Shown here piece after piece: positions 26,150-28,197 of a stretch of DNA of 64,000 nt. Position 1 is the first letter of the stretch. The number at the start of each line of letters is the position of its first letter. The stretch is taken from the NCBI GenBank assembly GCA_963755715.1, contig CAVWLW010000033.1, forward strand, positions 128,001 to 192,000, read 5' to 3'. The stretch is from an uncultured delta proteobacterium (GTDB lineage Bacteria; Desulfobacterota; Binatia; UBA9968). A program made the position numbers and the translations under genes. The notes below the pieces were generated by a model, which saw only the letters and a list, made by a program, of their open reading frames with translations, had not been told where the DNA came from and did no database searches.

Positions 26150-27133
26150 ATGAAGACCCTGAGCAGAGTGTTGATGTTGTTGCTTGTGCTGACGCCAAGA
26201 ATCTTAAGCGCGCAGACGAAGCTCAAGGTCGCCTATCCGACTACCGTCGGTTCGATGGCGGTTATTTGGGTGACCAAAGACGCTAAGCTGTTTGAAAAGT
26301 ACGGGCTCGACGTTGAGTTGATTTACGTTGCCGGCAGCTCGAGGATTGTCCAATCGATGCTGGCCAAAGACATTCCGATTTCCGAGATCGCGATTCCGGC
26401 GGTCATCCAGGCCAATCTTGCCGGAGCGGATCTGGTGATGCTCGCCGGTCCCAACAACAAGCCGGGACAAAAGATCATGGTCAAGCCGGAGATCAAGCGG
26501 CGCGAAGATCTGAAGGGCAAAAAGATCGGCATCAGCCGCTTCGGCACCTCGGACGATTTTTTGCTGCGCTACGTGCTCGGTCAATGGAATCTCCAGGCTG
26601 ACCGTGACGTGGCGTTGGTCCAGATGGGCGGCTCGCCTGAGACTCTCGCGGGCTTGGCGGCGGGCGCCATCGATGGCGGTTTGCTCGCTTCGCCGCTCCA
26701 TCTCCAGGCCGCCAAGTTCGGCTACCATCTACTCGCGGACCTGAGCACCATCGGCATCGATTATCAGGGCGCGGGTGTGGTGACGACGCGAAGCTACATG
26801 CGCGAGGCGCCCGATGTCACGCGGCGCTATGTGCGCGCCTACGTTGAGGGCTTGCACCGTTTCAAGACCGACAAGAATTTCGCCGTGAAAGTGATCGGCA
26901 AGTACTCGCGCAGCACGGACCAAGAAGCGCTGGAAGAAACCTACCAGCACTACGCCGTCAAGATTATGCCCAGAGTTCCCTATCCGACGATCAAAGGAAT
27001 TCAAATGGTGCTCGACGAAATCGGTTCGCGCACGCCGAAGGCCAAGAGCCTCGCGCCTGAGAGTTTTATCGACATCAGCTATTTGAAAGAGCTCGAGCAG
27101 ACTGGATTCATCAAGAAGCTTTACGGCGAGTAG
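26150..27133 (+). CDS. SsuA/NMT1-family substrate-binding protein
   Basis: Signal peptide; LFEKYGLDVEL, DLKGKKIGISRFG. Confidence 0.85.
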   Translation: MKTLSRVLMLLLVLTPRILSAQTKLKVAYPTTVGSMAVIWVTKDAKLFEKYGLDVELIYVAGSSRIVQSMLAKDIPISEIAIPAVIQANLAGADLVMLAGPNNKPGQKIMVKPEIKRREDLKGKKIGISRFGTSDDFLLRYVLGQWNLQADRDVALVQMGGSPETLAGLAAGAIDGGLLASPLHLQAAKFGYHLLADLSTIGIDYQGAGVVTTRSYMREAPDVTRRYVRAYVEGLHRFKTDKNFAVKVIGKYSRSTDQEALEETYQHYAVKIMPRVPYPTIKGIQMVLDEIGSRTPKAKSLAPESFIDISYLKELEQTGFIKKLYGE

Positions 27134-27279
27134 TTCGTCACATTGCTACTGATGTATCTGACAGGATCGCTTTGTCCAGTTCATCGATCAAAAAGCTCTC
27201 CGGCAATTTTGAATATTCAGTCAAAAAGTTTTTTCAGCGAGCGACAACGAGCGCGAGATTATATTCTCACGGATTATTA

Positions 27280-27308
27280 TTGACAGTTCGAAACCACTTT
27301 CGTAAACT
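27280..27308 (+). promoter_or_regulatory. sigma70-type promoter
   Basis: TTGACA (27280-27285), 17-bp spacer, TAAACT (27303-27308); AT-rich sequence upstream. Confidence 0.75.
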
Positions 27309-27339
27309 GCCTTCAGCAGGGAAAGGAGGTGGTCCAGAC

Positions 27340-27381
27340 ATGATTGATAAATGTATTGTCTGCGAGGTGGCTGAGACCTAG
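27340..27381 (+). CDS. Putative 13-aa peptide MIDKCIVCEVAET behind an extended Shine-Dalgarno
   Basis: GAAAGGAGGTGGTCCAG at 27321-27337, ATG 27340, TAG 27379-27381. Confidence 0.45.
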   Translation: MIDKCIVCEVAET

Positions 27382-27452
27382 GCTCTAGGCGGATTCTTTG
27401 ACGGGGATTCGGGCCTGGAGCCTGGGAATCCCCCTCAGTCCACCTATAGGTC
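27375..27452. terminator. Long imperfect hairpin (3' structure or bidirectional terminator)
   Basis: gaccta/taggtc, taggcgga/tccaccta, tga/tca, ggggattc/gaatcccc nested pairings. Confidence 0.6.
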
Positions 27453-27456
27453 CGCT

Positions 27457-28197
27457 TCAACGGCTGCTTCGGCTGTCGCTTGAAGCGGACCTTCTTTTTT
27501 TCAGCAACTCGAGCGCGGCGCCGGCGGTTTTTCTGCTCTCGCGATTCTCGCTTTCGCTGGCCTCGCGTAAAGCGATGACAAATTGCTCTGACGGCGATCC
27601 TAAGTCGGCCAGGACGATCGCTGCAGCATTGCGGACCCGAGAGTCCGCGTCTTCCAAGTAAGTTTTCAGCAAAAGACTCTTGTCGTTGTCATTGAGATCC
27701 GCTCTTTGCTTCAGGCAAATGGCGGCGGCGACTCTGACGGTTGGATTGTCATCGCGCAGCCCCTTCAGCAATGCCGCCAGACTGGCGTCGTCGTTTAGAG
27801 TCAGGTCGCGGATACAGTACAGCGCCATCCTTTTTTGGTTGGCTGTGCCGTTGGCGCTGAGTTCTATCAGATGGCCGATATGGTTATCATCGTTTTTGGC
27901 GAGGCGAACGAGCAGAAGGGCGACCGCCCACCGGATATCCGGTTCTTGATGATCCAGTGCGTCGAGTAAGACTCGTATGACGGTGTCGTTTGGAGACGGA
28001 AGTTGTCCTAGGATATATGCGACCGGCCAGTAATTTTTTTTTCCTGGTTGAGTGAGCCGTTCAAGAAGCAAGGCGCGCAGGTCGGCCGATTGCCCGGCCA
28101 ACGGGAAAAGGGCATCGACCGCGGCCCGAATCGTCGGCTTGTCGTGATGATCCAAGTCGGCAATGAGCGCGGCGATCTCGCTCTCGGCTTTAGTCAC
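27457..28197 (-). CDS. HEAT-repeat protein
   Basis: Repeats LDHQEPDIRWAVA, LRDDNPTVRVAAA, LEDADSRVRNAAA. Confidence 0.82.
   Translation of the reverse strand: MTKAESEIAALIADLDHHDKPTIRAAVDALFPLAGQSADLRALLLERLTQPGKKNYWPVAYILGQLPSPNDTVIRVLLDALDHQEPDIRWAVALLLVRLAKNDDNHIGHLIELSANGTANQKRMALYCIRDLTLNDDASLAALLKGLRDDNPTVRVAAAICLKQRADLNDNDKSLLLKTYLEDADSRVRNAAAIVLADLGSPSEQFVIALREASESENRESRKTAGAALELLKKRRSASSDSRSSR

Follow-up and report, generated by a model that had tools for sequence, protein, structure and literature searches.

A probable extended-Shine-Dalgarno small messenger RNA gene in an uncultured Binatia-like bacterium, distantly related to Ms_IGR-5

The window analysed here, a stretch of 64,000 nucleotides (nt) from an uncultured delta proteobacterium of the Binatia (GenBank assembly GCA_963755715.1, contig CAVWLW010000033.1, positions 128,001 to 192,000 of the forward strand), carries a compact element at window positions 27280-27501 of the plus strand. 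This element probably represents an independent gene for a small messenger RNA (mRNA) of approximately 185-190 nt with an extended Shine-Dalgarno sequence, which would be a distant homologue of the Rfam family Ms_IGR-5 and of the same kind as the rreB and rreR genes of the alpha-proteobacteria, and in which a small open reading frame (ORF) would act as a device for placing or sensing the ribosome. The gene is real and unusual, but belongs to a kind already known from two other bacterial groups. An earlier interpretation made from the letters of the DNA (the sequence-only reading) had proposed a stand-alone transcription unit that either engages the 30S ribosomal subunit through a very long Shine-Dalgarno sequence or expresses a Cys-x-x-Cys micropeptide. 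The stand-alone, 30S-engaging part of this proposal is supported by the conserved parts of the element, by RNA contigs and by the analogy with rreB, while the peptide part is not upheld.

The features of the element, given in window coordinates and with helices numbered P2 to P4, are as follows:

27280-27285 and 27303-27308, plus strand: putative sigma-70-type promoter, with the -35 box TTGACA, a 17-nt spacer and the -10 box TAAACT (10/12 consensus matches)
27321-27337, plus strand: extended Shine-Dalgarno sequence GAAAGGAGGTGGTCCAG (17-mer; 18 nt when taken as 27320-27337), identified by its pairing with the host's own 16S tail
27340 (ATG) to 27379-27381 (TAG), plus strand: small ORF of 13 codons and a TAG stop, encoding MIDKCIVCEVAET
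27364-27370, plus strand: internal Shine-Dalgarno-like GAGGTGG (GAGGTG at 27364-27369), forming Glu-Val codons, with the stop exactly three codons on
27365-27375, plus strand: 5' arm of the closing helix P2, located within the ORF and pairing with 27434-27445
27377-27389, plus strand: small hairpin P3 (CCTAG/CTAGG), the 5' arm of which contains the stop codon, based on sequence and structure counts
27403-27433, plus strand: hairpin P4, in which GGGGATTC (27403-27410) pairs with GAATCCCC (27426-27433), based on covariation
27434-27445, plus strand: 3' arm of P2, CTCAG-T-CCACCT, pairing with codons 9-12
27449-27501, plus strand: intrinsic terminator, with a 12-base-pair outer stem (27449-27460 with 27480-27491) followed by the T-run TTCTTTTTTT (27492-27501), based on folding and covariation

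The promoter boxes, the 17-mer, the ATG-to-TAG ORF and the second GAGGTG all lie where the sequence-only reading had placed them. Four promoter-like sites were found by a promoter scan of the 2-kb region, against 0.6 expected in shuffled sequences, with 27280-27308 as the best of these and a start site predicted from it at ~27314-27316. Given the terminator at 27449-27501, the RNA is therefore predicted to be ~185-190 nt in length, rather than the ~140 nt proposed earlier, when this terminator was overlooked; a simple terminator scan listed only the shorter inner stem at 27464-27488. The RNA from 27314 to 27505 folds at -96.3 kcal/mol (z-score -6.5 relative to shuffles). The nested hairpin of ~78 nt that had been described stands as a structured 3' domain taking in the stop codon, but consists of P2 enclosing the two hairpins P3 and P4 rather than of a single hairpin. 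The end of the 3' arm of P2, CCACCT, resembles the 16S anti-Shine-Dalgarno and, judged by its letters, could pair alternatively with the first Shine-Dalgarno sequence.

The only 16S ribosomal RNA gene detected in the host ends in ...CTGGATCACCTCCTTTCT, and against this tail every position of the 17-mer (27321-27337) is paired, with one G.U, so that the pairing postulated from the general 16S terminus also holds for the host's own. Addition of the G at 27320 gives an 18-nt run of sixteen Watson-Crick pairs and two G.U pairs, the 3' end of which falls 2 nt short of the ATG at 27340. The length of the anti-16S run was scored at every GGAGG site of the 7.4-megabase assembly (8,678 over the two strands), and the run of the element was the longest in the genome, the antisense of the 16S gene itself excepted, followed by runs of 16, 15 and four of 14 nt. 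Five other long anti-16S sites in the genome were inspected and none resembles the element.

The element occurs as a single copy in its own genome, and a DNA search across 41 related genomes, one of which is that of the window, recovered it from 37. All of the 22 related genomes with at least 90% completeness and at most 5% contamination contain it, and the four without a match have a completeness of 84-94%. The arrangement of promoter, extended Shine-Dalgarno sequence, ORF and terminator is kept in these relatives. The -35 box TTGACA is invariant in thirty relatives' loci, with the -10 box largely kept. In the alignment of 29 relatives, 27321-27334 show no variation and the string CAGCAG-r-GAAAGGAGGTGGTC is almost invariant. 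The ORF frame is kept, with length differences of +3 (L015) or -3 (L027-L029, L031) only. Within the ORF, TGC/TGT and ACC/ACT alternate, and the changes in the middle codons are mostly non-synonymous. At the position of P3, a hairpin with a different sequence is found in other families of the same order. One genome (G005, locus L008) is represented by a single row in these counts and alignments and no claim depends on it alone. In one genome of the genus (G009), the locus L013 is accompanied by a second, partial match on a different contig (C581:2687-2777; query 11-100, 88% identity), due perhaps to a true duplication of the element or to duplication in the assembly.

Comparison with known RNA families points beyond the Binatia. 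A permissive Rfam scan aligned the element over its full length with RF02471, Ms_IGR-5 (model positions 1-184, window 27315-27498), as a sub-threshold match of 37.6 bits (expect value (E) 7.8e-7), and when the model was run over the whole genome this locus was the best match (E 1.5e-6), with the next at E 0.22. A match to a known Rfam family had been named beforehand as a result that would speak against the sequence-only reading; the one found lowers the novelty of the element, but lies below the family's cut-off. Ms_IGR-5 and CC2171, a second family considered below, reportedly originated from screens for small RNAs (sRNAs) in Mycolicibacterium smegmatis and Caulobacter, respectively. The Ms_IGR-5 consensus includes the same GGAGGUGGUCC with the same G.U, reads as a small ORF ending in Cys-Glu-Val followed by three codons and a stop, and presents the same parts in the same order, namely the extended Shine-Dalgarno sequence, the ORF ending in Glu-Val and three codons, the closing helix and the terminator. 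It differs in its actinobacterial, rather than Binatia-like, host and in its inner hairpins. Taken on these sequence comparisons, homology between the element and Ms_IGR-5 is likely. The family is filed in Rfam as an sRNA, and the portion of its documentation that was available makes no mention of an ORF or an extended Shine-Dalgarno sequence. Ms_IGR-5 is reported to be transcribed in Streptomyces. Ribosome footprints on its homologues in M. abscessus and M. smegmatis are described in PMC4974804.

The wider distribution of the element was assessed by means of two pattern scans. The first, across one genome per species, looked for the Shine-Dalgarno core separated by a gap from TGYGAGGTG, and returned at least 120 stretches, of which 80 loci were listed. 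By record title, the matches listed include Mycobacterium and other Actinomycetota, Binatia, Rokubacteria, 'Deltaproteobacteria', Syntrophobacterales, Nitrospiria, Solibacteraceae, Terriglobia, Leptospira weilii and one Ignavibacteriales-labelled record (L075). Two of the loci, L037 and L078, are situated in seemingly ordinary coding regions and were rejected as chance matches. In the second scan, of metagenome contigs, the codon before GAGGTG was left free and 80 loci were counted. The RF02471 model scored 175.8, 97.9 and 92.9 bits on actinobacterial pattern loci, and when Rfam is applied with its own cut-offs, a family is assigned to the actinobacterial loci and to none of the others tested. 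Complementarity to the 16S tail spans 14-23 nt across the elements, with a mode of 17, and the tail was confirmed in one Mycobacterium and one Rokubacteria genome to be the same as that of the window genome. Among the Rokubacteria-type relatives, L049:3753-3826 (plus strand), L044, L089 and L055 show complementarity of at least 21 nt, reaching into the 3' strand of helix 45, together with a GTG start. A blastn comparison against plasmids and phages gave no match. A pattern scan of viral contigs gave 69 matches, none resembling the element, and these were taken as a control for chance.

A further parallel is provided by rreB and rreR, for which the following statements draw on the available portion of the description by Hahn et al. 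(2017, PMC5711450). The rreB gene of the Bradyrhizobiaceae specifies a 165-nt mRNA in which 17 nt match the 16S 3' end with perfect complementarity and an ORF of 14 codons begins with GTG. This mRNA co-sediments with 30S subunits, for which the 5' flank of the Shine-Dalgarno sequence is required, and is translated weakly, as evidenced by a fusion. Replacing the start codon lengthens its half-life from 10 to 37 min, its overexpression has no effect on growth, and its function is termed elusive. The RreB and RreR peptides are described as unstructured and their overproduction as being without phenotype, and the genomic context of rreB is not conserved beyond its family (PMC5711450). The element of the window shares with these genes, as far as they are described there, the form of a stand-alone RNA (~165-190 nt) with its own promoter and terminator (the transcript ends being taken here from sequence and contigs), a short 5' end leading into ~17 nt complementary to the entire free 16S 3' tail, and a small ORF directly thereafter (14 or 18 codons there, 13 here) that runs into a folded domain. 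Furthermore, in both cases the ORF is conserved inside a lineage and not between lineages, and the context is not conserved. As in rre-type genes, at least 16 nt complementary to the host's own 16S lie directly upstream of the small ORF. In contrast, the text consulted reports neither an internal GAGGUG with a stop three codons on nor a GAGGUG/CACC helix for rreB and rreR, and places these genes in the alpha-proteobacteria only, whereas the host of the window is Binatia-like. The GTG start overlapping the complementary stretch is absent from the window element and present in the Rokubacteria-type locus L049. The CC2171 consensus similarly opens with a perfect 17-nt anti-16S stretch, the last G of which begins GUG, and we infer that CC2171 is the rre gene of the Caulobacterales, in keeping with the accessible description in PMC5711450. 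The RNA is reported to be visible on Northern blots in Methylorubrum. The similarity of CC2171 to the element is essentially that of the Shine-Dalgarno sequence and the terminator.

The element is also present in RNA libraries. Twelve RNA runs, all from soil or rhizosphere, contain part of the stretch, each with at least 48% of the sampled words (20 rows and 16 studies overall). Contigs from four runs in four studies, placed on 26800-28000, span 27325-27578, 27335-27572, 27327-27477 together with 27476-27626, and 27319-27522, and overlap the region 27315-27450 in which the sequence-only reading had expected a transcript. They begin at 27319-27335 and none extends upstream of 27319, which gives a weak hint of a transcription start near 27315. 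The contigs continue over 27503-27626 into the 3' end of a convergent gene, reflecting either a leaky terminator or the merging of reads from two convergent transcripts.

Several features of the ORF that are not forced by the search patterns, namely the position of the stop, the in-frame start and the ORF length, bear on its translation. A stop exactly three codons past GAGGTG occurs in 30/30 relatives' loci, 78/80 genome loci and 63/80 metagenome loci, while among the viral-contig matches the same signature was found in 4/69, about the level of chance. The identity of this stop varies (TAG 133, TGA 18, TAA 10; n=161). Of 151 distinct elements, 139 have an in-frame ATG, GTG or TTG located 2-9 nt downstream of GGTC, compared with 3 and 63 in the other two frames, and the ORF has a length of 12-14 codons in 136/139. 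In the Ignavibacteriales-labelled locus L075:39-177 (plus strand), ATT is the sole in-frame codon at the usual distance that could serve as a start, and its near relative L057 carries ATG. The first codons (ATG/TTG ATT GAT; window 27340-27348) are alike in Binatia and mycobacteria (e.g. L046), with the remainder of the N-terminal half variable, a likeness that may be due to constraints imposed by initiation or by the RNA itself and not by the peptide. Judged by these patterns of sequence conservation, what seems to be selected is where the ribosome is placed, how long the ORF is and where it stops, and not the peptide.

The structure was written by hand from the sequence, and the paired cells were counted against controls in which the partner was slid. 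In the element's own order (29 sequences), 89.9% of the cells are paired versus 32-54% in the slid controls, and eleven pairs are changed on both sides, chiefly in P4 and the terminator. Compensatory changes within the order affect four of the eight pairs in P4, where GGGGATTC/GAATCCCC becomes GGAGATTC/GAATCTCC and takes further forms in relatives, and such changes are seen in relatives in 7/12 pairs of the terminator stem. The closing helix P2, which joins codons 9-12 (AGGTGGCTGAG) to CTCAG-T-CCACCT, scarcely varies within the order and varies between lineages. A pairwise duplex search, which was noisy and picked other partners in some loci and so served as a list of examples only, gave for instance GGTGGCTGC with GCAGCCACC, GGTGTCCG... 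with ...CGGACACC, GGTGACCA with TGGTCACC, and GGTGACGT with ACGTCACC. Two automated alternatives were set aside. The RNAalifold consensus on a plain MAFFT alignment was fragmentary, and its pairing of the Shine-Dalgarno and stop regions rests on invariant columns and was not relied on, while the minimum-energy fold of the single sequence pairs the P4 arms otherwise than the covariation supports.

A number of points weigh against this interpretation of the element. The RF02471 score lies beneath the gathering cut-off of 45 bits, which leaves the element formally outside the family, and RF01867, CC2171, scored 24.8 bits (E 0.0045-0.009) against a cut-off of 75. The structure model R1 matched 75 of 80 pattern-selected loci and gave 85 matches from 97 sources, but these loci share 18-21 fixed bases with R1, so that the scores arise partly by construction and are not independent proof of homology. 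On 151 genomes sampled from the same phylum under stricter filters, R1 yielded two matches, one of them being the window's own genome, and the distribution is therefore patchy. An alignment of 84 distinct cross-lineage sequences, in which 85.4% of the whole structure is paired versus 28-46% in slid controls and P2 is 86% paired with double changes in all eleven pairs, was fitted to R1 and hence favours the structure. The library contigs are shallow (depth 2-3) and unstranded and extend beyond the terminator as far as 27522-27626, and thus speak for presence in the libraries rather than for transcript ends. The element was likened to rreB and rreR by their described features, and the anti-16S match of those genes is described as perfect, with its last base forming the G of the GTG start, while here there is one conserved G.U and the ATG follows 2 nt on. 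Binding to 30S subunits and translation are carried over from the relatives, and simple titration of ribosomes is unlikely because rreB can be overexpressed without an effect on growth.

Of the other explanations, a non-coding, trans-acting sRNA survives best, although it appears unlikely. On this view the ORF is incidental, and the RNA would act only through base pairing of its anti-16S stretch or CCACC arm with ribosomes or with the ribosome-binding sites of target mRNAs. The strength of the fold (z = -6.5) and the covarying helices suit this explanation, as does the largely non-synonymous and free variation in the middle of the peptide. Helix P2 would by itself account for both GAGGUG and CACC, and the relatives are filed by Rfam as sRNAs. 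However, an incidental ORF does not lead one to expect a stop that is fixed in place yet may be any of the three stop codons, nor an in-frame start in 139/151 elements, a length of 12-14 codons and, within the order, length changes in steps of three only. The footprints on the Ms_IGR-5 homologues and the translated rreB fusion likewise argue against it.

Still less support can be found for the peptide as the product, that is, for a 13-residue Cys-x-x-Cys redox or metal-binding micropeptide as proposed in one half of the sequence-only reading, and this is considered very unlikely. The ORF is conserved behind a very strong ribosome-binding site, and the Cys-x-x-Cys motif is found in the window genome and some relatives. 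Neither cysteine is conserved, however, as relatives in the same order have Ser, Thr, Tyr or Glu in place of the first, and the codon before GAGGTG in 52 complete ORFs of the metagenome scan, where it was not forced, specifies Arg (14), Leu (13), Cys (11), Pro (6) or others, with the residues at the second position across lineages also including Gln and Ser. Glu-Val alone is constant in the peptide, and the codons for these residues form an arm of helix P2. The RreB and RreR peptides, unstructured and without an overproduction phenotype in the description available, offer no precedent for such a product.

The genomic setting bears on a further possibility, a cis-acting leader or attenuator of a downstream gene, for which the combination of a short ORF, a hairpin and a terminator would be reminiscent of ribosome-dependent attenuators. 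As the sequence-only reading remarked in arguing against a simple leader, there is no gene downstream on the plus strand; the next ORF (27457-28197, minus strand) is a convergent HEAT-repeat gene. Furthermore, the neighbours checked in eleven other lineages are unrelated and of varied orientation, no anti-terminator that would compete with the conserved terminator was found, and the context of rreB is, in the consulted part of its description, likewise not conserved outside its family, which makes a cis-acting role extremely unlikely. Among the neighbours checked, no gene neighbourhood is shared beyond the convergent HEAT-repeat gene within the Binatia. The 3' end of this gene overlaps the terminator stem of the small RNA, with its last codons running through the stem, and the same convergent pairing is seen in a second Binatia genome (L048:1858-2478, minus strand). 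The downstream flank is likewise kept in the genus and in L023/L024. On the minus strand, a diverging promoter-like site, CTGTCA-17-TATAAT (10/12), at 27258-27286 overlaps the -35 box of the small RNA. The long overlapping ORFs at 27172-27381 (plus strand, 69 amino acids) and 27221-27460 (minus strand, 79 amino acids) gave no Pfam match at E <=0.01. Elsewhere in the genome and outside the window, near position 158315 of contig C73 of genome G000 (minus strand), a 14-nt anti-16S Shine-Dalgarno sequence precedes an ORF of 29 codons; the encoded peptide is hydrophobic and may be a small membrane protein that has escaped annotation.

The chance of a fortuitous match or of an opposite-strand 16S gene fragment is practically negligible, since, even though the 17-mer is the reverse complement of the 16S end bar one change, the likeness to the 16S gene ends at the 18 nt, the whole unit is kept in 37/41 relatives and in other phyla, and chance matches on viral contigs display the ORF signature in 4/69 cases only.

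For the small mRNA with a ribosome-placing or ribosome-sensing ORF, the following course of events can be proposed. The strong sigma-70-type promoter would yield an RNA with a 5' end made up nearly entirely of the 18-nt complement of the single-stranded 16S tail. This stretch would capture the 30S subunit very tightly, while placement of the start codon and release would, as judged from rreB, be poor because the duplex reaches within 2 nt of the AUG; as the duplex ends there, placement of the AUG in the P-site should require that it be partially melted. Those ribosomes that do initiate would read the 13-codon ORF, of which the peptide sequence would be largely free and the length, frame and stop position fixed. 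The closing helix is predicted to start 24 nt after the first base of the AUG, just past an initiating ribosome, and the ribosome could therefore bind without unfolding it, while elongation would need its unfolding. As the last five codons make up the 5' arm of this helix, a translating ribosome would have to open it. With the ribosome at the stop, the internal GAGGUG would be situated 6 nt from the P-site codon, which is a Shine-Dalgarno distance, and opening of the helix would free the CCACCU arm that resembles an anti-Shine-Dalgarno. Owing to a conserved A-to-G change in the first Shine-Dalgarno sequence, this arm could pair with either GGUGG. The ORF is most likely a device that places or senses the ribosome and couples the structure and turnover of the RNA to ribosome engagement; that it serves to make a functional peptide is unlikely.

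A broader proposal can be put forward tentatively, and with more doubt than confidence. The window element, Ms_IGR-5 and, by analogy, rreB, rreR and CC2171 may constitute one very widespread class of ribosome-engaging micro-mRNAs that extends over many bacterial phyla. The large branch of it described here would carry a fixed module, in which the 18-nt anti-16S stretch is followed by a 12-14-codon ORF, with its GAGGUG placed three codons ahead of the stop, and by a CACC arm mimicking the anti-Shine-Dalgarno. A single ribosome passing along the RNA might open this module like a latch, and the RNA might in this way signal or tune how many free 30S subunits are available, or else protect the 16S tail of subunits that are idle.

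No literature linking Ms_IGR-5 with the rre genes, or placing such elements beyond the alpha-proteobacteria and Actinobacteria, was found in the limited library searched. The present analysis adds this link, the breadth of occurrence across phyla and the module of GAGGUG, stop and closing helix, and rejects the Cys-x-x-Cys reading. Small mRNAs with a Shine-Dalgarno sequence spanning the whole free 16S tail had been described once, in the alpha-proteobacteria only, and the same design is now seen in a Binatia-like soil bacterium and tied to an actinobacterial Rfam family that was filed as a plain sRNA, with the module also present in genomes labelled as other phyla and in soil metatranscriptomes. 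The feature apparently under selection is thereby defined more sharply, as ribosome placement rather than the peptide. For annotation, this is a gene overlooked by current pipelines and by the Rfam cut-offs, and the homologous gene has culturable hosts in Mycolicibacterium smegmatis and Streptomyces. If the proposal of a latch class is true, such elements would form a general layer of translation control that has so far gone unnoticed.

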